From contig CAZSUC010000001.1 of NCBI GenBank assembly GCA_964610055.1, forward strand, positions 351,994-415,993: DNA of 64,000 bases. The letters are read 5' to 3'. This document shows, piece after piece, positions 13,765 through 61,696 of this stretch. Source of the stretch: an uncultured Candidatus Saccharibacteria bacterium. GTDB lineage: Bacteria > Patescibacteriota > Andersenbacteria > UBA10190. The translations under genes and the position numbers were made by a program. Position 1 is the first letter of the stretch, and every line of letters begins with the position of its first letter. Under the pieces are notes generated by a model that saw only the letters and a list, made by a program, of their open reading frames with translations, was not told the DNA's origin and searched no databases.

Positions 13765-14469
13765 CTAAGCTGGTTGCGGAGTTAATTTGGTTACGTTTGT
13801 TAATTCTCCTTTGATTAAAATACGTTGATTGGTTGTCCAAAGTGGCCAGCAAGCCATTAACGTTACCGTTGGCACTGGTCGATCCGAAGCAATCGTTAAT
13901 GACGGCGACGGCTTTACGATTTCTTTTTCCGTAATCTCATATGTGTATCTGGTACCGTTGTAATCCAGATGAATTACATTGCCTGGTTCCAAATCATTTA
14001 GTTTCAAAAATGCAAACCGGTATTTTCCTTTCCATGGTTCACCTGTACTATGCGCAGCGATAAAAGTATTCCCCAAATGCCCGGGCTCAATCCCGTTAGG
14101 GTATAGAGCTGCTCCATACGCTAATGTCGCTAAGATATCACTATCGTTCATGCTGTCACTCATAACTAAAGGCACATTCACTCCAATCGCCGGAATCCGA
14201 ATAAAGTTGCCTTCCTCCTCTTGGGTTAAGCCACTAAGAGCGGGATACAATTCTCGTGCCGGTACTGGTTCTGGCGTCGGTCTTTCTTCCGCCGGCCCTG
14301 CTAACGGCAGCTCCGGAATCTCAACTTGATCATCCTGGGTAATCAGCAAAGCCGCCGGCCACACCATGGAAATCAGCGTACCTACGCCAAATACCAGCAA
14401 GAAAACTGCCGCAAAGGTTCCGCTAAAAAGTCTCAAAGTTGTGCCAACATTAGACATAATTTCACTCAA
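13765..14469 (-). CDS. sortase family transpeptidase
   Basis: N-terminal transmembrane anchor, catalytic His (IAAHSTG) and the TLxTC catalytic Cys motif (TLMACWPLW). Confidence 0.8.
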   Translation of the reverse strand: MSEIMSNVGTTLRLFSGTFAAVFLLVFGVGTLISMVWPAALLITQDDQVEIPELPLAGPAEERPTPEPVPARELYPALSGLTQEEEGNFIRIPAIGVNVPLVMSDSMNDSDILATLAYGAALYPNGIEPGHLGNTFIAAHSTGEPWKGKYRFAFLKLNDLEPGNVIHLDYNGTRYTYEITEKEIVKPSPSLTIASDRPVPTVTLMACWPLWTTNQRILIKGELTNVTKLTPQPA

Positions 14470-15132: not shown

Positions 15133-16578
15133 TTACCATAAAATCAACACTGCTGCCAAAACTAAAACTAGTGATGCATGCGCAATTAACGCTGGCCTTT
15201 GAATCCGAATATGAATAATTATTGCTAAACTTAAGAGAATTAAAACGATCACGAAGATTATCGTCGTCATAATTCTCACCGCTCGATTAAACTTAGCTGG
15301 CGTTGCTACGAAATCCTGATTAGTTTCATTGTTGTAAACCGGTGCCAGGGAAATCGTTTTAATTACGCTTTCATTACCCGCTTCATCAAACAAAGACAGT
15401 GTTAAGGATTCGTTACGGAAGGGGATTAACATTCGCTCCTCTTGCGTGAATTCATATGTTTCTGATTCGCTGCGCCAAATCGCCCGGATTGCACCATTGT
15501 CATCACTCCAGATCATCCACCACTGCGGATTATCCGTTTGTATCGTTAACATGAATTTTAATCCCGCCTCATCTATTCTCGGTCCGGTAGTATCTTTCGT
15601 CACAGTTACGGCCGCACTCGCCGGACTGGTATTACCAGCTGCATCTGTTGCTGTTGCTGTGAGTGTCACTAAACCATCCGGTATTTCGGCCAAAGTAATT
15701 TCTGTCACAGTAATCTTGTCTGTCAGCGCCGCAATTCTTTGTACAACCGTGTCGTTTGCTAAAACCTCCAGGGTAGTTCCAGCCTCTGCTTGGATCGAAA
15801 CTTGAGCTGTATCAGCAACGTTTTCGTTAGCTGTAATCACGGTTATCACCGGAGGTTCTGGCGGCGTAGTGTCCGCTGGTATTATAGTCGGTGTTACTGT
15901 TGGACTTGGTGAAGGCAGGGGAGTTGTGGTTGGCAGCACAATTGCTGGAGTTGGTGTTGTTGGTGAAACTGTAGTTGCTGGTGCCACCTGTGCTGTCGCT
16001 GTACTTGGTAAACCAAACATATGCACAACAATCGTTGATGTACCGCCTTGAAACTCGCCCGTAACCACCGCTACGCCTGTTTCAGTGTAACTGGATAACA
16101 ACATATTCTCTTTATGAGTTGGACTATTCATCCACGCTTGCACCACATCTTCTGCTTCCGTAAAATCAATCGCTAAATTTTCTCCCGCCACTTTATACGT
16201 ATATCCCACTTTATTCATCCAAAACCATGGTGTAATTCCTGATGGTGAAATATGGGAAAAATAGTCTTCTTGTAACATGTGCTCACCCTTTTGTTGTGCC
16301 GCACTGGTTAACTTGTCGTTTACTGTTAATGGCTCTAAGCCTGCTTCTACCCGCTCGGCATTAGTTAATTGCACGATCCTGGCTGCTGTAATTGTTGATA
16401 ATTCGGCTGTTTTCGGTAACAGAATAACAAACAATAAGGCTAGCAATTTTGTGCTAACTAATAATGCCGACACGATCGCCAAAGGCTTATGTCGTAATAG
16501 CTTGGGATGATAATTATTATCCGCATGCGGAATCACACATAGCCGTGCTGAATGTACGTATCTTGCCGTTACGCTCAT
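15133..16578 (-). CDS. cell-surface CAP/SCP/PR-1 (YkwD-like) domain protein with P/T-rich linker, Ig-like region and C-terminal hydrophobic anchor
   Basis: CAP core …LTNAERVEAGLEPL…HYTQVVW-like segment (HISPSGITPWFWM…AGENLA…AWMNSPTHKENML), then a TPTPxxxPTTTP linker and a C-terminal transmembrane segment. Confidence 0.65.
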   Translation of the reverse strand: MSVTARYVHSARLCVIPHADNNYHPKLLRHKPLAIVSALLVSTKLLALLFVILLPKTAELSTITAARIVQLTNAERVEAGLEPLTVNDKLTSAAQQKGEHMLQEDYFSHISPSGITPWFWMNKVGYTYKVAGENLAIDFTEAEDVVQAWMNSPTHKENMLLSSYTETGVAVVTGEFQGGTSTIVVHMFGLPSTATAQVAPATTVSPTTPTPAIVLPTTTPLPSPSPTVTPTIIPADTTPPEPPVITVITANENVADTAQVSIQAEAGTTLEVLANDTVVQRIAALTDKITVTEITLAEIPDGLVTLTATATDAAGNTSPASAAVTVTKDTTGPRIDEAGLKFMLTIQTDNPQWWMIWSDDNGAIRAIWRSESETYEFTQEERMLIPFRNESLTLSLFDEAGNESVIKTISLAPVYNNETNQDFVATPAKFNRAVRIMTTIIFVIVLILLSLAIIIHIRIQRPALIAHASLVLVLAAVLILW

Positions 16579-19979: not shown

Positions 19980-20145
19980 AACATTGCAAATAAAACCAAA
20001 TTATGGCATACAATAACTAGTCATCCCAAGACCCAAGGCACCCATAAGTCCTTGGCAGGAAGGCAAAGAGGGGATAGTCAAAACTATCCGGTCGAACCTT
20101 TGCAACCCCATTTCCGCGGATGATCGCGGTTTTTTATTACCGCTT
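19980..20145 (+). promoter_or_regulatory. rplJ leader: putative promoter (TTGCAA…TACAAT) and structured L10-leader-like 5'UTR with attenuator hairpin plus T-tract
   Basis: TTGCAA (19982-19987) and TACAAT (20007-20012). Hairpins at 20071-20090 (ggatagtcaaaactatcc) and 20114-20129 (ccgcggatgatcgcgg), then TTTTTTATT, directly upstream of rplJ. Confidence 0.4.
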
Positions 20146-20170
20146 AAAATATCAACAAGTTATTCTCTTT

Positions 20171-20698
20171 ATGGCATTAACTCGCCAACAAAAAGAAGCA
20201 AAAGTAGTTGAAGCGGAAAATCATCTGAAATCTGCTCAAGCCGTGGTTTTCATGGCTTATGATGCCCTCGGAGTTAGCGATAGCGAAGAGCTGCGTGATC
20301 AGCTCTTTACCGCTGGCGTCCGTATGCGGGTTATTCCTAAACGCTTATTGCGTTTAGCGGCTCAAAACCTTAAGCTCGAGTTAAAATGTCCGGACTATGA
20401 TGGACAGATTGCTCTGCTTTGGTCGGATGCTGATGTTGTTGCTCCAGCAAAAACCTTACGTGAATTCGCCAAAAAACATGACAATGTTTCTATGGTCGAA
20501 GGAATCATGGAAGGTCGGGTTTTAACAACGGATGAAGTCCAAGCCTTAGCCCAATTACCAGGTCTGGAAGAATTACGCGCCAAGTTCGTTGGTACTATTG
20601 CCAACCCGATGCGTGGTTTTGTCTCCGTCTTATCTGGTACACAACGTGGATTAGTGTGCGCTTTAAAGGCAATCGCTGATTCCAAACCAACAGCTTAA
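20171..20698 (+). CDS. rplJ: 50S ribosomal protein uL10
   Basis: MALTRQQKEAKV… is the L10 N-terminus. The ORF track shows the frame open from 20120, but Met 20171 fits L10. rplL follows. Confidence 0.9.
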   Translation: MALTRQQKEAKVVEAENHLKSAQAVVFMAYDALGVSDSEELRDQLFTAGVRMRVIPKRLLRLAAQNLKLELKCPDYDGQIALLWSDADVVAPAKTLREFAKKHDNVSMVEGIMEGRVLTTDEVQALAQLPGLEELRAKFVGTIANPMRGFVSVLSGTQRGLVCALKAIADSKPTA

Positions 20699-20721
20699 TT
20701 ATTTAATCATCTAAATTTCCT

Positions 20722-21132
20722 ATGGCTGAAGATACTGAAAAAACAGTCGAGGTTCCTGCCAAGTTCAAGGATCTCGTTAAACAAATCGAAGACATGTCCG
20801 TTTTGGACTTATCTGAATTAGTCAAAATTTTGGAAGACAAATTTGGAGTTTCTGCGGCTGCTCCAGTCGCTATGATGGCTCCTGCTGCTGGCGGTGACGC
20901 TGCGGCCGCTGTTGAAGAAAAATCAGTCTTCAACATCGAATTAACTTCTGCTGGTGCTCAAAAAATTGCTGTCATCAAAGCTGTCCGTGAAATTACCGGC
21001 TTAGGCTTAAAAGACGCAAAAGACTTAGTTGAAAAAGCTCCTGCCACCGTTAAAGAAAACGTGAAAAAGGAAGAAGCCGAAGAACTCAAAAAGAAGTTAG
21101 AAGAAGCTGGCGCTTCTGTCGAACTCAAATAA
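20722..21132 (+). CDS. rplL: 50S ribosomal protein bL12 (L7/L12)
   Basis: N-terminal dimerisation helix, an Ala/Pro hinge and the C-terminal domain …[24 protein letters not shown]…. Confidence 0.95.
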
Positions 21133-21162
21133 TTTCAAATCGCTTTTACGCGGTCCGTTTTC

Positions 21163-21190
21163 GCCAGCCGTTCAACCGGCTGGCTTTCGG
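21163..21190 (+). terminator. rho-independent terminator after rplL
   Basis: gccagccg-ttcaac-cggctggc followed by TTTCGGTATTT. Confidence 0.6.
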
Positions 21191-21234
21191 TATTTAGCGT
21201 AAATCCAGTATGATAAGACTAAGACATCCTTCGT

Positions 21235-21615
21235 ATGTACCACCATTATTTCTATTGGCAGTTTGTGGTTGCTCCGCTTTGGTTAATGCGTTTATTCGGT
21301 AATTTGGAACGCGCTTTAATTCGTTTTTTTTCAGTGCCGGTTATGTTGCGCTATCTATTTGCTCCGTGGCATAAAGATACGATCTCATATCGGCAGGGAA
21401 GTATCAGTGGAATTTTAGAAGCTTTTGGTTTGAACATGGTTTCTCGCGGCGTCGGCGCTGTCATTCGCTCATTTGTTTTAGTTGCTTTTTTTGTCAGCCA
21501 ATTAGCCCTTCTTGTTTTTGCTTTTATTACATTTACCAGTTTTCTACTCCTGCCTTTCCTGGCTGTTTTTCTGGTAATCAGTGGCCTCTTATTACTACGT
21601 AACACTTTAGCATGA
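21235..21615 (+). CDS. small polytopic membrane protein (hypothetical), translationally coupled to the downstream Clp-like gene
   Basis: 126-aa hydrophobic ORF. Its stop overlaps the next start (ATGA). Confidence 0.45.
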   Translation: MYHHYFYWQFVVAPLWLMRLFGNLERALIRFFSVPVMLRYLFAPWHKDTISYRQGSISGILEAFGLNMVSRGVGAVIRSFVLVAFFVSQLALLVFAFITFTSFLLLPFLAVFLVISGLLLLRNTLA

Positions 21616-24065
21616 CCTCTGCTCTCACCAAAACTGATTTACATCGTTCTCAAGCTTACCGCGCTTATGCTGCTTATGATCTACTGTCTTCTGGTGTCTC
21701 CTTAACTATCTGGATTCTTCTAACGTTAATCACGGTAGTTTTATATCTAATTTCTGTCTTGCAAGCCAATCAGCTTATTTTTGGGATGAGCTTAATTTCA
21801 GCCGGCTTTAGTATTTTGGGTTGGTTATTTTACCTTTTTGGCATAACTTATTTGCCCACCAATGCCGCGCTTAAGTCCAAATCAGCGCAAAATTTACTTG
21901 ATTCTTGCAGCTTTGCTTCTTTGCGTCTTTTAGTACCTGTTATTGACCAGTCTAACGCTGTGGCTCAACTTTTATCACGTGTGTTAGATTGCCGCCCTGG
22001 ACGTGCTTTCTTGCGACGCATCCAAACTGATCCAGAAAACTTATCTTCTAGCCTCACTGCCACTGTCTTACCGCATATTACTTTATCCGATTGGCTACAA
22101 GCCGCTCTTCCTTTAACTCACACCTCTCCTGTCGGCGTTATCGAACCAGAGCATTTATTAGCTGCCTTATTGCTTCATCCGCAGGCTCAAGGCTTGATCC
22201 GTGCTTTTGATCTGCAAGAAGACGACATCAATTTTATTTCTTGGTGGTTAGTTTCCGCTCGTTTTTATCGAGCGCAAGCTCGGCGCTGGTGGAATCCTGA
22301 ACGCTTGTTAGCATTTTCTGGTATTGGTTTATCTTGGGCCTCTGGTTTCACCCCGTTAGTTGATCGGTATTCTCGGATTCCTCGCGGAAATCTTTGGGAT
22401 GATTTCTTGGTTGGCCGCACTCAATATGTCGATCAACTCATCACAACTTTAGCTCGCCAACGGCAAAGCAATGTTTTGCTGGTCGGTCAACCAGGTGTTG
22501 GTCGTATCGGTATTGTTCGAGAATTAGCTCGTCGAATTAGTGCTAGCCAAGCCCATCCTGTGCTTAATGGCCAAAAACTAGTTTATCTGCATATCGGTGA
22601 ATTAATTGGCTTAAGTAGTACTGCTTCTAATCAACTTTCTGTTTTTGCCACCGTCCTAAACGAAATGGAGCGAGCCGGAAATATTATTGCTGTCTTCGAC
22701 GGAATTAGCAGTGTCTTAGCGCAGCCAAACGGTAGCTCTTTGGATTTAACCGAAGTTTTATTGCCTTTCTTCTCTTCTCGTACTGTCCGTGTTGTCGTCA
22801 TGCTGTCATATGACGACTATCATTTACGCCTAAAAAACAATCCAGAATTACTCCATCTCTTTGAAACAATTCTCATTCAAGAACCTGGTGTTAACGACAC
22901 TCTCAAAACCCTCGCTTTAGCTACCCCTAGCATTGAAACTGAGACCAGTGTTTATTTACCGTATCAATCTTTACACACCTTAGTTGAAGGCACGGCCGAT
23001 TTAATGCCTGATATTCCGTTTCCGGAACGAGCCTTCGATATCTTAGAAGAAGCCTTAGTTCAGGCTCAGTCTAATCATCAACGTCAAATTCTCGTCACTG
23101 ATATTGATAATTTATTAAGTCGTAAAACTGGTATTCCGTTCGGGCAAATCCGTTCCTCTGAAGCTGAGCGCTTACTAAATCTCGAAGATATTATGCATCA
23201 GCGTCTTATTAATCAGCATCAGGCCGTACAAGCCATTAGTCGCGCCTTAGTCCGAGCTCGCGCCGGTATTCGCAATCCTCATCGTCCGATCGGTACCTTT
23301 TTATTCCTTGGCCCAACCGGAGTCGGAAAAACTGAAACTGCAAAAACTTTAGCGGATGCCTACTTTGGATCAGATGACTATGTTTTACGCTTTGATATGT
23401 CAGAATTTCAAACTGAAGAGGGGATTGCTCAATTAATTGGCAGTCATTCCAATCCAATTGGCCGCCTTACTTCCGCCATTTCCGATCACCCTTTCGCTGT
23501 TTTATTACTCGATGAATTCGAAAAAGCTCATCCCGCAGTTCATCAATTATTTTTACAAGTTTTAGATGAAGGGCATTTAACTGACGCGCGTGGACATACT
23601 GTTTCATTTAAACACGCCATTATTATCGCGACTAGCAATGCTGGCTCGGAAATGATTCGTGAAGAAGTTAAAGACGGTCATGTTCCAACCGATTTCTCTC
23701 GTCGTCTCACAGAGTATATTTTGTCTCAAGCTATTTTCCGTCCCGAACTTCTTAATCGTTTTGATGGCGTGATTACTTTTGTACCGCTAACTCCTGATCA
23801 TATTCGCGCAGTCGCTCGTTTAATGTTGGCTAAATTAAATCATCGTCTTGATGATAGGCACGGAGTCACTTTAGATGTCACTGATGAATTGCTTGATTTT
23901 CTAGTTACTCATGGCTACGATCCTGAATTTGGTGCTCGTCCCATGGATCGTCTCATCCAAAATACTTTAGAATACGCCATCGGTCGCCGCTTATTACAAT
24001 CTGATCTACGTCCTGGCGACACTTTGCATTTTAGCCTGACTGAACTGCAAGCCTTATTAAATTAA
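21612..24065 (+). CDS. membrane-anchored ClpA/ClpC-like two-module AAA+ protein with degenerate D1 and intact D2
   Basis: N-terminal transmembrane helices (about 2-3), then Clp_N-like repeats (…EHLLAALLLHPQ…). D1 has GQPGVGRIG in place of GxPGVGKT and FDGISS in place of hhhDE. D2 is canonical: GPTGVGKTETAKTLA, LLLDEFEKAHP, ATSNAG, and the C-terminal ClpB_D2-small region. Confidence 0.75.
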   Translation: MTSALTKTDLHRSQAYRAYAAYDLLSSGVSLTIWILLTLITVVLYLISVLQANQLIFGMSLISAGFSILGWLFYLFGITYLPTNAALKSKSAQNLLDSCSFASLRLLVPVIDQSNAVAQLLSRVLDCRPGRAFLRRIQTDPENLSSSLTATVLPHITLSDWLQAALPLTHTSPVGVIEPEHLLAALLLHPQAQGLIRAFDLQEDDINFISWWLVSARFYRAQARRWWNPERLLAFSGIGLSWASGFTPLVDRYSRIPRGNLWDDFLVGRTQYVDQLITTLARQRQSNVLLVGQPGVGRIGIVRELARRISASQAHPVLNGQKLVYLHIGELIGLSSTASNQLSVFATVLNEMERAGNIIAVFDGISSVLAQPNGSSLDLTEVLLPFFSSRTVRVVVMLSYDDYHLRLKNNPELLHLFETILIQEPGVNDTLKTLALATPSIETETSVYLPYQSLHTLVEGTADLMPDIPFPERAFDILEEALVQAQSNHQRQILVTDIDNLLSRKTGIPFGQIRSSEAERLLNLEDIMHQRLINQHQAVQAISRALVRARAGIRNPHRPIGTFLFLGPTGVGKTETAKTLADAYFGSDDYVLRFDMSEFQTEEGIAQLIGSHSNPIGRLTSAISDHPFAVLLLDEFEKAHPAVHQLFLQVLDEGHLTDARGHTVSFKHAIIIATSNAGSEMIREEVKDGHVPTDFSRRLTEYILSQAIFRPELLNRFDGVITFVPLTPDHIRAVARLMLAKLNHRLDDRHGVTLDVTDELLDFLVTHGYDPEFGARPMDRLIQNTLEYAIGRRLLQSDLRPGDTLHFSLTELQALLN

Positions 24066-24066
24066 T

Positions 24067-26313
24067 TTATTCTGCCACCGCTTGAATCGGTACCTGCAAT
24101 ACTTGCGTGCCTGACAAAACATAAAGTGAATTTTCATCTGGCGCCAACGCCACATCTCGCACGTTATTCAGACTGTCCAAGAAAATCTGCTGTTTCAGCT
24201 GCCCCTTTTTGGAAAAGATAACTACTCGTTTATTTATGCGGTCAAAAATATACAAATAGTTTGAATCTTCTTGCGTCATGATTTTATCTGCTCCTGCCAA
24301 GCCTGGTGACACTTCGTCTAAAGTAAAATCTAGTGCTTGCCCTTTAAATAGTTCATGTACCGATCCGTCTTCATGCAAAGTGTAGATGCTGCCATCGATC
24401 GTCATGCTTACAATTCCACTGCTTACAAAATTTTGATCCTCAATCCAAGCTACTCCACCGCTGTATCCGCTCAATGTCTTGCTGTAACTAAAAATGTTAT
24501 TTGCCGTTGCATCATAGACGTATAAGCGATTACTATACGCCGCCATTGCTTGAATATTTGGCTCCGAAGACGGGAAGTTAATGCTCTGGGAGCTAAAATT
24601 CCCATCCTTTGTATCCAATGAAGCCATGCCTGGCGCATCAGTTAAATACACGATCGTTTTATCTGCCGATTGAGTAATTGTCTTTTGAATATATCCAATT
24701 CCAGGAGTATTCCGACTTACCACATCCGGTTCACCATTCGTGCTCAAGCGGACAATCGTATTATCTTTAGGACTAAAAGTATAAGCTGCGCCATTAATAA
24801 ACTCTAAGCTAGTTAAAGTCTCGGTCCCTAATATTGACCCAAAATCTCCTATCGTTTTTGTTTCTAAAGACCCGGCATGAGTAATTTTCTGTAATCGATC
24901 CTGAATATCTGTAATCTGCTGTGCTAAGGTCTCAACTTCATTCTCATATGCTCCTAAATTCCTTACTTCTGCCAGGCTTGACTCCGCGTCTACCAGTAAT
25001 TTTGTTGCTTGTTCGCGATTATCATATATCAAGGCCGTTTCTGCTGCGTCGTGTTGGGTTTGAGCTTGGTATAGCAATTCGCTCGCTCGCTGAATTGAAG
25101 CATCTTCAGTTTTTTTATCTTTTAATAAAACAATGCTTGTCCCTAAAGCGATTGCTAATAAAATGGCAACAACACCAAAAATTTTGCTTGTCCGTGGCAG
25201 GGAATATAATCGCGCCAGCCCTAAAAGAATTAGCCGTATTGGCATTGTTATAACCGCTTTCAAACTCTCTAATAAACTCCGCTTTGGTAAGGTCGTTTCC
25301 TGTCTCACTTTTTTCTCTTTATGTCGTATCCTGAGCCATGCCGACTGGAGTTTAGTACCAGAATTACGTGATGCGCTCCCCATGGCGTTGCCGCCACGTC
25401 GTAATAACCGACCCATTAAAGGCGCTGCTTTCGTTAGTATCCAATGCCCACTCACCACGATGCCTCGTACTATTAAAATTAAAACTGTCTTACCAATAGA
25501 TTTTTTAATCTGTAACGGACGTCTTGGCTGCAGTGACGTTTGTACTCCACGCTGGCGTTGTTTATCAGTTACATTTACATTTTGATCCTGACTTACAGTT
25601 ACCGGCACCGAAGCTTTGTGTCGCGGTAAAATTGAAACTACAACTGTGCTTAAAGGAACATTAGCTCCTTGATCTTGGTACAGTTGACGCATCTTATTGC
25701 TAATTTCAGCCGATGACCGTTCTTCCGCAAAACGTAATAAGTCTTGCGGCCGGTAAATATTCATCATTGCCGGCGTGCCTAAATACAACACGTCATAATT
25801 ACTAATTTTCCCGCTCGCAACCTGACCAAAACTACGCAACGGATGCGTAATCACTTCCTCTGCTAAACTATCAGTCGCTTCTACAACCTGTCCGCTCCTT
25901 ACAATATAAATACCAGCTAAACCAGCGGCACTCACATGCACCCATTGTCCTGCCACCGCTGCCACCGCTACATGAAAATGCTGCATCCATTCTCGCCAGC
26001 CTCGCTCAGCCGTATCATGTAACACTAAATTAGCTTGATGTAGTGCCGATTCAAAACCAGACAACATGTTTCTTTTTGGGTCACGATAATACTCTCTTTG
26101 TAACGCTTGCACTACTGTTTCTAATAATTCCGTGCCCGCTCCATCCATATTTTTCGTCTCGCCTACAATATATAAGTGCCCTAAGTCTCGTTCTTCCGGA
26201 GCTGGCTCAAAAATGTACGACTCGCAAATAAATTCATCGCGCCCGCCAACTAATAATTCATTCGCGTCGTTAATATACAATTCATTCGGCTCGCTGCCTG
26301 TTCTCATGCCCAC
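24067..26313 (-). CDS. PP2C-like phosphatase domain / TM / coiled-coil / C-terminal beta-propeller protein (hypothetical signalling protein)
   Basis: The N-terminus has PPM-like motifs (…VGETKNMDGAGTEL… resembling DGMGGH, and …STVVVSIL resembling DN.TVVVV). A transmembrane segment near residue 370 is followed by a coiled coil and repeated beta-propeller-like blades. Confidence 0.5.
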   Translation of the reverse strand: MGMRTGSEPNELYINDANELLVGGRDEFICESYIFEPAPEERDLGHLYIVGETKNMDGAGTELLETVVQALQREYYRDPKRNMLSGFESALHQANLVLHDTAERGWREWMQHFHVAVAAVAGQWVHVSAAGLAGIYIVRSGQVVEATDSLAEEVITHPLRSFGQVASGKISNYDVLYLGTPAMMNIYRPQDLLRFAEERSSAEISNKMRQLYQDQGANVPLSTVVVSILPRHKASVPVTVSQDQNVNVTDKQRQRGVQTSLQPRRPLQIKKSIGKTVLILIVRGIVVSGHWILTKAAPLMGRLLRRGGNAMGSASRNSGTKLQSAWLRIRHKEKKVRQETTLPKRSLLESLKAVITMPIRLILLGLARLYSLPRTSKIFGVVAILLAIALGTSIVLLKDKKTEDASIQRASELLYQAQTQHDAAETALIYDNREQATKLLVDAESSLAEVRNLGAYENEVETLAQQITDIQDRLQKITHAGSLETKTIGDFGSILGTETLTSLEFINGAAYTFSPKDNTIVRLSTNGEPDVVSRNTPGIGYIQKTITQSADKTIVYLTDAPGMASLDTKDGNFSSQSINFPSSEPNIQAMAAYSNRLYVYDATANNIFSYSKTLSGYSGGVAWIEDQNFVSSGIVSMTIDGSIYTLHEDGSVHELFKGQALDFTLDEVSPGLAGADKIMTQEDSNYLYIFDRINKRVVIFSKKGQLKQQIFLDSLNNVRDVALAPDENSLYVLSGTQVLQVPIQAVAE

Positions 26314-27164: not shown

Positions 27165-27761
27165 ATGAAAAGCTCTTCCGTTTTTACTTGGTCGCGCATT
27201 GGATTTATTGGTTATTTTCTTTTTACTGCCTGGACTTTGTATTTTCATCCGTATACTTCTTCTGCATTAGCCGGGGAGTGGGTTCTGTATTTACTCTTGA
27301 TTTACATTTTATCCGAACGTATCTATTTTCTTTTTTTGCCCCGCCGAATTGATCTTTCTTTTGCCTTTCCAATCCTGCTGGCTATTTATACGCTTAATCT
27401 CTCGACGCTTTTATTAGGCGGCCAAGTAGAACACTACCTTTTAAATCGTGCTGAACACTTCGCTAGTTTCGTCCTGCTTACGTATGTTATTTGGGTGAGC
27501 TTTACTCAATATTTCGCCAAAGAACTTTGGAAGCATCATCCTTATTACACGGCCGTCACCGTACTTGCTTTTGCTTCTTTACTTGGTGTCATCAATGAGC
27601 TTATCGAGCTATTACTTGATAGTTTGCTTGGTACACACTTAATTGGGCCTAACCTTGATACCTCACTCGATCTCTTTATGAACACACTTGGCTCTATCCT
27701 ACTCATCGGCACCAATCTCATCCTCAAAGCCGGGGATGATCATACTCAGTCCAGTACTTAA
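27165..27761 (+). CDS. polytopic membrane protein (hypothetical) immediately upstream of sortase 2
   Basis: 198-aa hydrophobic ORF of about 6 transmembrane segments. Confidence 0.45.
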   Translation: MKSSSVFTWSRIGFIGYFLFTAWTLYFHPYTSSALAGEWVLYLLLIYILSERIYFLFLPRRIDLSFAFPILLAIYTLNLSTLLLGGQVEHYLLNRAEHFASFVLLTYVIWVSFTQYFAKELWKHHPYYTAVTVLAFASLLGVINELIELLLDSLLGTHLIGPNLDTSLDLFMNTLGSILLIGTNLILKAGDDHTQSST

Positions 27762-27765
27762 CCTC

Positions 27766-28362
27766 ATGCGGCGGTTTTTCATTCCGCTCATTATCGCAGT
27801 CTTCTTAGGTGGAATTTTTATCGGTTTTAAATATCAATCAGACATTGCCGTTCTCTTGCCTATTTCTCATCCCAAACCACCTTCACCCCATTCAGATTTA
27901 ACAACTGTTCCAGCGCCTTTTTCCTTAGACAATACGCCCCATCTTTATTTACCGCGCTCATCTCAATCACTACCGCTCATCTTTAGTAACACTTTTGACG
28001 ACCAGTATATTCAAACTCAGTTACAACACGGGGCTGTCGTTTTACCTTTTGGTCCTAATTTTGGTGAGCAAGGCAACATAGTCATTACCGCACATAGCAC
28101 TGGCCCAGCCGCCTTCGGGCCGTACCGCTTTGCTTTTTCTGAGTTAGCTAACTTACAAACTGGCGATCATGTTCTTATTAAAACCATCGCCGCTGATTAC
28201 ACGTATCAGGTTTTTAGCCAACAAATCATTTGGCCGCATGAGCTCGACCAGCTTCCTCGTGATGATCGTCCTACACTTACTTTAGTTACTTGTTGGCCTC
28301 TTTGGACTGATTTTAAACGTTTGCTCGTTAACGCTATTTTGACCAAAATCGAATACCACTAG
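27766..28362 (+). CDS. sortase family transpeptidase (second paralog)
   Basis: Catalytic His (ITAHSTG) and TLxTC Cys (TLVTCWPLW), with an N-terminal transmembrane anchor. The ORF track shows the frame open from 27688, but Met 27766 avoids overlap with the upstream gene. Confidence 0.8.
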   Translation: MRRFFIPLIIAVFLGGIFIGFKYQSDIAVLLPISHPKPPSPHSDLTTVPAPFSLDNTPHLYLPRSSQSLPLIFSNTFDDQYIQTQLQHGAVVLPFGPNFGEQGNIVITAHSTGPAAFGPYRFAFSELANLQTGDHVLIKTIAADYTYQVFSQQIIWPHELDQLPRDDRPTLTLVTCWPLWTDFKRLLVNAILTKIEYH

Positions 28363-59818: not shown

Positions 59819-61696
59819 ATGAGCACAATTATTGGAATTGACTTAGGCACTACTAATTCAGCCGTCGCTGCCATGCAAGGCGGTCAACCAACCATTTTAG
59901 AAAACTCTGAAGGCAATCGCACGACTCCGTCTGTTGTTGCTTCTAAGCAAGGGGAGCGCCTCGTTGGTGTTCTAGCCAAACGTCAAGCTGTTGTTAACCC
60001 CGGCAATACAATCTATTCCTCTAAGCGTTTAATTGGTCGTCGTTTTCAAGACCCCGAAGTTCAGCGTGACAAAGAACTATTACCTTATGAAATCAAAGAG
60101 GGCGCTAATGGGGGAGTAGAAATTAAGTTTGGCGATTCTTGGGTTCGGCCCGCCGAAATCTCCGCCATGATTTTACAAAAATTAAAAGCTGATGCCGAAG
60201 CTAAGCTCGGCACGACTATCACTGATGCTGTTATTACCGTACCCGCTTATTTCGACGACGCTCAGCGCAAAGCTACCAAAGATGCTGGTCGAATCGCCGG
60301 TTTAAATGTGTGCCGCATTATTAACGAACCAACTGCCGCTGCCTTAGCATATGGCCTCGACAAAAAATCCGAAGAAAAAATAGTTGTTTTTGATTTAGGT
60401 GGTGGAACCTTTGATGTTTCCATTCTCGAAGTCGCAGCTGATACAATCGAAGTTCGCGGTACTCATGGTGACACTCACTTAGGTGGCGATGATTTTGACC
60501 AACGCATCATTGACTGGATTGTTTCAGAATTTAAAGCCCAAGAGGGGATTGACCTCAGCAAAGACAATGTCGCTTTGCAGCGCTTGAAAGAAGCGGCCGA
60601 AAAAGCCAAGCATGAATTAAGCGCAGCCACTACCACTGAAATCAATCAGCCCTTCATTACTACCGATGCCAATGGGCCTAAACACTTAGTTATGACCATG
60701 AGTCGCGCTAAGCTCGAAGAGCTCGTAAGTGAGTTAATTGATCGCGCCATTCAAGTTACCAAAGACGCTTTAGCTGAAGCTAAGTTAACTACTGCCGACA
60801 TCAATGAAGTAGTTATGGTTGGTGGCCAAACGCGCATGCCGAAAGTGGTTGCCGACGTTAAACAATTATTTGGTAAAGACCCTCATCAAGGTATTAATCC
60901 TGACGAAGTTGTTGCTCTTGGTGCGGCCATTCAAGGTGGTATTTTAGGCGGCGATGTCAAAGACGTCCTGCTGCTTGATGTTACTCCGCTCACCTTAGGC
61001 TTGGAAACTTTGGGCGGTGTGCGTACGCCATTGATTCCAAAAAACACGACCATTCCTACTAAAAAATCTCAAGTTTTCTCAACCGCTGCCGATAACCAAC
61101 CACAAGTTGAAATCCATATCCTACAAGGCGAACGGGAAATGGCCGCTGATAACAAAACCCTCGGTCGTTTTGTCTTAGACGGTATTCCTCCTGCTCCTCG
61201 TGGTGTTCCACAAATTGAAGTGACTTTTGACATTGATGCTAACGGTATCCTCAATGTTTCCGCTAAAGACAAAGCCACTAATCGCGAACAAAGCGTTAAA
61301 ATTGAAAGCAGTTCTGACCTGACAGAAGCTGAAATTCAGCGTATGCAGCAAGAAGCCGAAGCTCATGCCGCTGAAGACAAGCAGCGCAAAGATGCGATCG
61401 AAACCAAAAACCAGGCCGAACAACTCATCTACACCACCGAAAAAACTCTGAAAGATTTAGGTGACAAAGTTGACGACACAACCAAACAAGATATCACCGC
61501 TAAAATTGAAGAGTTGAAAAAAGCCAAGGATACCGATGACATTAACGCTATCAAACAAGCTTCTGATGCTTTATCAACTAAAATTCAAGAAATCGGTCAA
61601 AAAATGTACCAGCAAAATCAATCCCAGACGCCAGAACAACCAGCAGCCCCTGATGAAGGCGAAGTAGTCCAAGGGGAAGCTAAAGACAAAGAATAA
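59819..61696 (+). CDS. dnaK: molecular chaperone DnaK (Hsp70)
   Basis: [18 protein letters not shown] and the canonical Hsp70 domains. Confidence 0.95.

Follow-up and report, generated by a model that had tools for sequence, protein, structure and literature searches.

A membrane-anchored Clp/Hsp100-like ATPase with a degenerate first ring, paired with a small membrane protein, in the candidate phyla radiation

Introduction

Clp/Hsp100 proteins are textbook soluble threading motors. What, then, might be the role of a Clp-like protein that appears to be held in the membrane by its N-terminus and whose first ATPase ring has a degenerate catalytic site? The question is raised by two overlapping genes at positions 21235–24065 of a 64,000-nucleotide (nt) stretch of DNA, referred to here as the window (positions 351,994–415,993 of the forward strand of contig CAZSUC010000001.1, GenBank assembly GCA_964610055.1), from an uncultured bacterium deposited as Candidatus Saccharibacteria and placed by GTDB among the Andersenbacteria. 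The genes encode a small membrane protein and a large AAA+ protein with two ATPase modules, D1 and D2. A first-pass annotation, made from the sequence alone, suggested that they form a specialised machine for membrane-protein extraction or quality control. We find that the observation behind this suggestion is real and conserved, although three of its statements need correction, and that the interpretation is partly supported. The reading that we favour, with a probability of roughly 45%, is that the two proteins are subunits of a membrane AAA+ remodeller that does not depend on ClpP, is driven by D2 alone and works by conformational change rather than by threading.

Results

The large protein is a divergent member of the Clp/Hsp100 family

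The small-subunit gene (21235–21615 in the list of open reading frames, ORFs) codes for 126 amino acids (aa) and the large-subunit gene (21612–24065) for 817 aa; both ORFs are real, and all features described here lie on the + strand of the window unless stated otherwise. The start codon of the large gene lies on the stop codon of the small one in an ATGA overlap (21612–21615), which confirms the overlap read there in the first-pass annotation. The ORF, Pfam, NCBIfam, AlphaFold2 (AF2) and Foldseek results characterize the large product as a membrane-anchored, Clp/Hsp100-derived two-ring AAA+ protein, in which a transmembrane (TM) hairpin with both ends inside (N-in/C-in) is followed by a divergent Clp_N domain, a D1 module that by its motifs is catalytically dead and a catalytically complete D2. 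Its closest homologs are labelled Candidatus Andersenbacteria, a lineage of the candidate phyla radiation (CPR, Patescibacteria), and one database protein is identical to it.

Pfam recognizes AAA_2 at residues 558–718 (1.3e-42) and ClpB_D2-small at 726–806 (1.2e-22), with a faint AAA_16 match in D1. The NCBIfam models for ClpA, ClpB, ClpV, ClpG and ClpK all score far under their cut-offs: 367.1 against 993.15 for ClpA (TIGR02639; 309.6 against 1350 for PRK11034), 398.6 against 1232.1 for ClpB (TIGR03346) and 314.6 against 884.95 for ClpV/TssH (TIGR03345). The ClpA model aligns with the large protein as one stretch (residues 264–806 to model positions 185–731), the best sequence matches in the PDB are ClpB, ClpC and ClpA, and alignment to these three bears out the two AAA+ modules claimed earlier. 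In the ClpB alignment, ClpB residues 400–530 have no counterpart, the query passing directly from 484 to 492, so the large protein lacks a middle domain. Its AF2 model, built from 85 homologs, is confident (predicted local distance difference test, pLDDT, 92.1; predicted TM-score, pTM, 0.88) and comprises the hairpin, eight helices at 95–224 and two AAA+ modules. The top Foldseek matches of this model are structures of ClpC (in ClpC/ClpP), ClpB and ClpA, with E-values of about 1e-38 for ClpC and ClpB; for 9gi1_f, the TM-score is 0.84 on the target, with a root mean square deviation of 3.9 Å over 575 columns.

No type VI secretion system domains were found among the scanned neighbouring genes, and no Peptidase_M41 match in the large protein, which with its two rings also stands apart from FtsH. 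Judged by these profiles, the large protein belongs to class I of the Clp/Hsp100 family as a divergent member and falls outside the defining limits of ClpA/C, ClpB and ClpV. Membership of a defence system was considered and rejected: the PADLOC models DolB and PDC-M37B match the D2 region (513–686) only, the partner proteins are not in PADLOC and the neighbours are housekeeping genes.

The N-terminal transmembrane helices reported in the first-pass annotation are borne out by hydropathy, the AF2 model and charge counts, which place a helical hairpin at aa 25–84 (21684–21863), N-in/C-in, with an external loop of only ∼4–7 residues. Kyte-Doolittle analysis gives hydrophobic segments at 22–58 and 55–79, and AF2 draws helices at 28–51 and 54–84 (pLDDT 94–97). 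By hydropathy, nearly all orthologs have the same two helices, contrary to what a mis-called start would produce, and over 88 orthologs the mean number of Lys and Arg residues is 3.7 in the N-terminal tail, 0.14 in the loop and 2.3 after the second helix, a distribution that fits an N-in/C-in hairpin under the positive-inside rule.

Behind the hairpin lies a divergent Clp_N-type domain of eight helices (aa 95–224; 21894–22283), delimited with Pfam, hhalign and AF2. The Clp_N repeats claimed for this region hold up weakly: the query scores 19.8 bits against a Pfam cut-off of 20.7 (0.9 under), whereas 9 of 20 orthologs match. The best PDB profile match is the ClpA N-domain (E=0.07), and hhalign against ClpB N-domains gives a probability of 93.9% (E 1.6e-7) with both repeats covered. 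In the ortholog alignment, the N-domain is joined to D1 by a family-specific, Trp-rich linker (RRWW...GIGLSWASGFTP.VDR; aa 225–262; 22284–22397), which matches D1 in conservation (58% identity to orthologs) and may lie at the membrane interface.

D1 is a conserved ring with a degenerate catalytic site

Aligned to the D1 of ClpB and ClpA, the D1 module spans aa 263–490 (22398–23081). Its P-loop (22485–22511) reads GQPGVGRIG instead of the GEPGVGKTA of ClpB, with Lys replaced by Arg and Thr by Ile, and its Walker B motif (22686–22703) reads IAVFDG instead of ILFIDE, with Asp kept and the catalytic Glu replaced by Gly. These replacements are conserved in an alignment of 104 Candidatus Andersenbacteria orthologs, the set to which all D1 and D2 motif counts given here refer: the Walker A Lys is Arg in 92 and Gln in nine of them, the Thr is Leu or Ile in 95, and the catalytic Glu is Gly in all 104. 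Degeneration of D1 across orthologs is thereby confirmed, with one correction to the first-pass annotation, which had both Walker motifs lost: Walker A and the catalytic Glu are indeed gone, but the Walker B Asp (Asp363) is kept in 101/104. D1 also lacks the KYRG pore loop, having LSSTASN in its place, and the ERRF arginine fingers.

Identity to orthologs is about 54% for D1 against 68% for the D2 large domain. Conservation of D1 is thus close to that of the remaining protein, which argues for a maintained pseudo-ATPase, not a decaying domain. Judging from the motifs, D1 is conserved in sequence and incapable of ATP hydrolysis.

The state of the D1 catalytic residues differs by lineage. The GxGR[IL]G motif with DG is the Andersenbacteria state; most Saccharimonadia have GVGKT with DN, DD or ED; the saccharimonadial loci L018, L022 and L025–L028 have GVGKTT with DE, and the D1 of L018 is recognized by Pfam AAA; L014 has GSGRRN with DE; and L017 and L024 have no P-loop at all. 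The arginine fingers (ERRF) and the pore-loop Tyr of D1 are kept in no lineage compared. The Andersenbacteria state is therefore one case of a family-wide relaxation of D1 catalysis, which, as far as motifs can tell, is dispensable across the family.

D2 is the predicted motor but lacks a ClpP loop and a canonical pore loop

The D2 large domain (aa 557–722; 23280–23777), delimited by the Pfam AAA_2 match and by invariant columns, has an intact Walker A (23310–23336) and an intact Walker B (23502–23525), and is followed by a ClpB_D2-small domain (23778–24035) that carries the sensor-2 motif GARP (R776). Both Walker motifs, sensor-1 N676, the arginine finger R716 and sensor-2 R776 are invariant, and no lineage compared departs from the D2 catalytic residues. 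With all catalytic residues present, D2 is by prediction the only motor of the protein.

The description of D2 as fully canonical applies to these catalytic motifs and not to its pore loop. In alignment and in the AF2 model, the GAPPGYVGYEEGG of ClpB is replaced by GSHSNPIG (23439–23462), a loop five residues shorter and devoid of aromatic residues; AF2 places it at 610–617, between helices 604–609 and 618–625. Andersenbacteria orthologs share the pattern G-x4-P-[VTI]-G-R-L-T, whereas the Saccharimonadia have the unrelated ADGADDPxSLT or EVGSxNTNSLT, and a D2 loop that is not conserved between these two groups makes canonical threading unlikely. Aromatic pore-loop residues are missing from both rings across nearly the whole family. 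To our knowledge, every characterized threading AAA+ enzyme has an aromatic residue in pore loop 1 (GYVG in ClpX, ClpA and ClpB, FVG in FtsH, and also Msp1 and the D2 of Cdc48); its absence here makes a non-threading cycle at the membrane probable.

The pore loops bear directly on the extraction machine proposed earlier. Spelled out, a hexamer would thread damaged or misplaced proteins from the D1 side, like Msp1/ATAD1 or FtsH, with the small protein as adaptor or receptor. An N-terminal anchor that sets the D1 entrance at the membrane, a D2 that is a complete ATPase by sequence, a Clp_N-like substrate or adaptor domain, the P-[VTI]-G-R conserved in the Andersenbacteria D2 loop and, in Southlakia epibionticum (see below), a non-essential pair with a slow fitness loss consistent with quality control would all suit such an extractase. 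Set against them are the absence from D1 and D2 of the aromatic residue of characterized threading enzymes and a D2 loop that is five residues short and varies between lineages, and we consider this alternative unlikely. Of the original proposal, the anchor, the pseudo-ATPase D1 and the Southlakia phenotype fit, but the aromatic threading residues are missing in both rings; an extraction machine is possible in view of its orientation and fitness phenotype, and weakened by its pore loops.

Nor does the protein appear to work with ClpP. No [LIVM]G[FL] tripeptide was found in D2 (aa 557–817), and the segment that follows the D2 sensor-1 is of ClpB length, with no insertion relative to ClpB, which argues against ClpP docking, as in ClpB. 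A tripeptide of the [LIV]G[FL] type after the D2 Walker A occurs in only 9/104 orthologs, at non-conserved positions. The earlier statement that the protein has no IGF/LGF-type tripeptide thus stands for D2, although IGL occurs at aa 238, in the linker between the N-domain and D1, and at aa 332, in D1, both on the membrane side, the wrong side for docking. The IGL at aa 238 was ruled out as a ClpP loop by its position. A tblastn search of the 64-kb window with E. coli sequences as queries found no ClpP or ClpX. That the large protein is an ordinary ClpC/ClpA-type partner of ClpP, as the JGI annotation has it, agrees with the overall fold match to ClpC-ClpP structures; given a D2 with no [LIV]G[FL] loop and a segment of ClpB length, a ClpA score of 367 against 993, the lack of M-domain and UVR domain, a dead D1 and the separate canonical ClpC and ClpP of Southlakia, it is very improbable.

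Two side observations concern related proteins. P0110 (903 aa) is another membrane-anchored Clp-like variant with an N-terminal CxxC...CxxC zinc ribbon ahead of its membrane helix, GVGKD in D1 and a D2 loop that likewise has no Tyr. In the Peregrinibacteria loci L016, L019 and L030, Walker A ends in Q, not E.

The small protein defines a widespread family

The first-pass annotation described the small protein as a 126-aa polytopic membrane protein. The ORF and about two membrane helices (aa ∼79–125) are confirmed, with the correction that a strongly basic N-terminal part of ∼75 residues (9.4 K/R against 4.0 D/E) precedes the ∼45 uncharged hydrophobic residues. The basic part consists of a helix (2–31), a conserved FSxxxMLRxLFxPWHKD loop and an ISRxxGxxxR helix; family motifs are FS..LL.RTLF.P[WF] and ISR.IG...R, and the invariant residues are W8, F32, S33, S70, R71, G74, R78 and P107, of which Pro107 is in the membrane part. 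No match was found in Pfam, NCBIfam or PADLOC. The AF2 model (pLDDT 91.4) draws residues 57–125 as one helix and has no significant fold match in the PDB, the best being ExbB (E=4).

An indexed search returned 1908 matches to the small protein, and an exhaustive one 1384 cluster representatives at E<=1e-3 and 955 at E<=1e-10, so that the family has at least 1384 clusters at 50% identity. Nearly all of the best 150 cluster representatives are 120–135 aa long. The family is found in Andersenbacteria, many Saccharibacteria (including oral ones), Peregrinibacteria, Moranbacteria, the Parcubacteria group and Berkelbacteria. One locus (L021) comes from a metagenome-assembled genome labelled Chloroflexi; it has a Saccharimonadia-type pair adjoining murT, with 63% tblastn identity to the murT of the Saccharimonadales locus L004, and the contig is probably misbinned Saccharimonadia.

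The small and large genes form a conserved module

At 74 of 80 loci with the small gene (73 recovered by motif search plus L013, found separately), a Clp-like ATPase ORF of 800–900 aa begins where the small gene ends, give or take a few bases; at the other six, the contigs end too early to show the ATPase. The spacing ranges from a 4-nt gap in L002 to overlaps of 4 to 16 nt in L001, L004, L008, L009 and L010. The small gene is directly upstream of the ATPase gene in Andersenbacteria, Saccharimonadia (Saccharibacteria), Peregrinibacteria and one genome of the Parcubacteria group.

In three separate groups, the small and large proteins are fused in a single polypeptide: in an Andersenbacteria subclade (P0096–P0106), with no separate small ORF in L005 and L007, in a Saccharibacteria genome (L051; 855 aa) and in a Moranbacteria genome (L049; 512 aa). 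In L051, the small subunit takes the place of the ATPase's own hairpin. The adjacency of the two genes and their fusions establish a two-gene module, and the functional tie to the small membrane protein suspected in the first-pass annotation is borne out; the pair is a conserved two-gene module of the CPR.

The fusions differ in detail. The Moranbacteria ORF (3986–5521 of L049) joins the small subunit, membrane part, N-domain and D1 over 511 residues before a stop, without D2, and is either a split gene or a pseudogene. The P0096–P0101 proteins apparently have three hydrophobic segments between the basic N-domain of the small subunit and the ATPase body, compared with only two in L051; if all three span the membrane, they conflict with the N-in topology.

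Since fused forms are known, a frameshift might have split one gene in the window, and a mis-called start or a decaying pseudogene would likewise turn the pair into an artefact. The probability of this is negligible: a separate small ORF of the usual length is the rule, nearly every ortholog has the N-terminal hairpin, D1 is under constraint and the AF2 model is confident throughout.

The membrane parts of the two proteins invite another explanation, drawn by analogy with Bcs1, VirD4-type coupling proteins and FtsK/SpoIIIE, namely that a ring of membrane helices, two from each large and about two from each small subunit, forms a conduit that D2 opens or across which it pushes cargo. CPR bacteria are epibionts that need to exchange material with their hosts, which would give such a transport or gating motor a use; the membrane helices pack closely and leave hardly any loop on the outside, an obligatory small subunit even replaces the ATPase hairpin in L051, and the threading pore loop is missing. 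Yet there are no conserved cargo or secretion genes nearby, the membrane helices of the small protein have no conserved polar or charged residues except R78 at their boundary, and the pair is non-essential in Southlakia. Built purely on analogy, this alternative is distinctly unlikely.

The wider gene neighbourhood of the pair varies

Only the pair itself is conserved, and its surroundings differ between phyla. A conserved wider neighbourhood was rejected, as the division and cell wall (dcw) and murT contexts are each confined to particular lineages, and the genes next to the pair in other phyla are unrelated.

In the window, rplJ and rplL lie directly upstream of the pair. Further upstream are genes for a sortase, a CAP-domain protein, ManC, YceG/MltG, a NUDIX protein and a DUF5701 protein, and downstream those for a winged helix-turn-helix protein and a sortase, followed by mraZ, rsmH, ftsL, ftsI and a Mur ligase gene; a DnaK gene is found farther on (59819–61696). 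The location of the pair between MltG/YceG and mraZ-rsmH-ftsL-ftsI with sortases nearby, here and in other Andersenbacteria, would suit a cell-envelope or division factor that acts on a membrane protein of peptidoglycan synthesis or the divisome, as would its divergent orientation from murT-gatD in one Saccharimonadia group and Southlakia and the FtsQ-like POTRA gene upstream in L017. However, murT adjoins the pair in only 8 of the 37 loci with full flanks, the neighbours in Peregrinibacteria and oral Saccharibacteria (tmk, folD, purF and yebC) are unrelated, and Southlakia requires MurT but not the pair. A role of this kind is improbable.

Unlike in most bacteria, rplJ-rplL are not followed by rpoB-rpoC (20120–21234); a hairpin and the small/AAA+ pair come instead, and the order rplJ-rplL-pair is common to the other Andersenbacteria loci L001, L002, L005 and L007. 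The hairpin (21163–21184), identified in the sequence and by RNA folding between rplL and the small gene, is stable, with an 8-bp G+C-rich stem and a T-rich tail; the surrounding 51 nt fold with −21.6 kcal/mol. It is absent from the output of the consensus terminator scan. It is possibly an attenuator or terminator, in which case the pair may have its own transcription start or depend on read-through from rplJL.

Two sortases and a secreted CAP-domain protein (13765–14469, 15133–16578 and 27688–28362) flank the region and recur at other Andersenbacteria loci. The segment 18732–19893, which holds the NUDIX and DUF5701 genes, has a G+C content of 0.50 compared with ∼0.43 elsewhere; the two genes are missing between YceG and rplJ in the related loci L002, L005 and L007, and the segment looks like a local insertion.

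On the − strand, a 748-aa ORF (24067–26313) converges on the stop codon of the AAA+ gene. Its position is kept in Andersenbacteria, where it is 706–724 aa long and at times extends into the 3' end of the AAA+ gene. Pfam gives nothing significant for its product (DUF5667 is sub-threshold only), and there is no PDB or PADLOC match; its C-terminal half has a weak ScyE-like match. It was rejected as a third component, being restricted to Andersenbacteria, missing from the Saccharimonadia loci and without family or PDB match.

Fitness of the corresponding genes in Southlakia epibionticum

The sole transposon sequencing (Tn-seq) study of a patescibacterium is that of Southlakia epibionticum (PMC10633639, Table S1). 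In this organism, SEML1_0701 encodes a 127-aa hypothetical protein; SEML1_0700, which overlaps it, encodes an 860-aa protein annotated as 'AAA family ATPase', in which AAA_2 spans 544–706 and D2-small 713–792 (PMC10633639). The two genes are divergent from murT/gatD, as in loci L004 and L008–L010. Both were called NE, NE and GD at passages 0, 1 and 2, with normalized reads falling from 4124 to 2517 and 1638 for SEML1_0701 and from 258 to 157 and 51 for SEML1_0700; the adjacent MurT is essential (PMC10633639). Identical calls for the two genes, non-essential with a late growth defect, fit a role of the quality-control type.

Southlakia also has non-essential genes for ClpP (SEML1_0493) and for a ClpC (SEML1_0512) that carries two Clp_N repeats and a UVR domain (PMC10633639). 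Thus, the membrane Clp-like protein coexists with the ClpC-ClpP system and is not its substitute. Neither SEML1_0700 nor SEML1_0701 is taken up in the main text of that study (PMC10633639).

Discussion

In the remodeller that we favour, the large subunit would be held in the membrane by its N-terminal hairpin, with the Clp_N-like domain and D1 face against the cytoplasmic side. An N-terminus in the membrane turns the D1 face towards the bilayer, an orientation that would also suit pulling proteins from it. D1 would serve as a structural scaffold ring, as in the D2 of NSF or the D1 of PEX1/PEX6. ATP turnover by D2 would drive a conformational cycle that reaches the membrane part by way of D1 and the N-domain, with no polypeptide being threaded, and each cycle would remodel or free a membrane-bound client, or else the small subunit's own helix bundle. 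The complex would act without a protease and without coupling to DnaK, and its role would be in membrane-proximal maintenance or assembly, of modest fitness value, rather than in an essential biosynthetic step.

Several points weigh against this reading. The case against threading has a single base in the sequence, the missing aromatic residues; the Andersenbacteria D2 loop retains its conserved P-[VTI]-G-R, and the D2 loop of Peregrinibacteria L016, L019 and L030, GSTDPRYPSEGFLT, alone among the lineages retains a Tyr and a Phe, so a non-canonical grip on the substrate is possible. With Walker A and B kept, the D1 of L018, L022 and L025–L028 may be active. The model of the small subunit, with a single helix at 57–125 where about two membrane helices are predicted, leaves its topology ambiguous. 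Finally, the assignment of SEML1_0700 and SEML1_0701 to the family is based on synteny and domain coordinates rather than on aligned sequences.

A bolder conception, which we offer as a doubtful one, is that the family represents a class of Hsp100 machines that are no unfoldases at all. Its hexamer would use the single active ring as an ATP-driven lever on an assembly of ∼24 helices, made up of the hairpins and the small subunits, gating, inserting or moving something at the CPR membrane in a Torsin- or Bcs1-like manner; the class would have arisen early in the CPR and been kept in most of its lineages.

Whichever mechanism applies, this is a large natural family that departs from the rules for Clp/Hsp100 proteins in being membrane-anchored, having a one-ring motor and a dedicated small subunit and lacking aromatic pore loops. 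The CPR account for much of bacterial diversity, and their tiny genomes, across which the family is spread, keep few dispensable genes. Database names such as 'ClpC' or 'AAA family ATPase' conceal how different the large proteins are, and the small family is unannotated. For both genes, transposon mutants are already available in a Saccharibacterium that can be cultivated, which makes the function directly testable; the outcome would indicate to what extent the Hsp100 scaffold lends itself to new uses and would inform the question of how non-threading AAA+ proteins such as the Torsins operate.

Comparison with known systems

Our literature searches turned up no description of a membrane-anchored Hsp100 or of a CPR Clp-like ATPase module, and the comparison is therefore with better-known AAA+ proteins. 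ClpC and ClpA, the best structural matches, have the same succession of N-domain, D1, D2 and D2-small, and the large protein resembles ClpA in length and in having no long middle domain. It differs from both in its membrane anchor, its apparently dead D1, the lack of a ClpP loop, the absence of a pore-loop Tyr from either ring and its obligatory small membrane partner, and it has no MecA-binding M-domain or UVR domain. ClpB/Hsp104 has the nearest D2 (about 278 bits) and a post-sensor-1 segment of the same length, and neither protein has ClpP docking; here, however, there is no coiled-coil M-domain and no GYVG, D1 has a dead catalytic site and the protein is anchored. With no M-domain, no coupling to DnaK is to be expected, though the window encodes DnaK.

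FtsH and Msp1/ATAD1 share the N-terminal anchor that sets the ring entrance at the membrane, which in FtsH is also a two-helix one, but they have one AAA ring with an aromatic pore loop and, in FtsH, an M41 protease, none of which applies here. A division of labour between one non-hydrolysing scaffold ring and one motor ring is likewise known from NSF, PEX1/PEX6 and p97, which belong to another AAA+ clade, are soluble and have aromatic pore loops in the active ring. Bcs1, a membrane-anchored AAA ring that moves folded cargo with no classical threading, provides the analogy for a transport motor; it is a mitochondrial, single-ring heptamer, related by the AAA fold only.

The closest working analogy that we can offer is with the Torsin ATPases of the eukaryotic endoplasmic reticulum and nuclear envelope and their partners LAP1 and LULL1. 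A fold search of the PDB detected no homology between these partners and the small subunit, and Torsins differ in being single-ring, luminal proteins whose arginine finger is supplied by the partner, whereas the large protein is bacterial and cytoplasmic, has a D1 ring and keeps its own R716. What they would have in common, on general knowledge of Torsins and the review PMC5425593, is a fold like that of Clp/Hsp100 D2, association with a membrane, pore loops without aromatic residues and the need for a small transmembrane partner.

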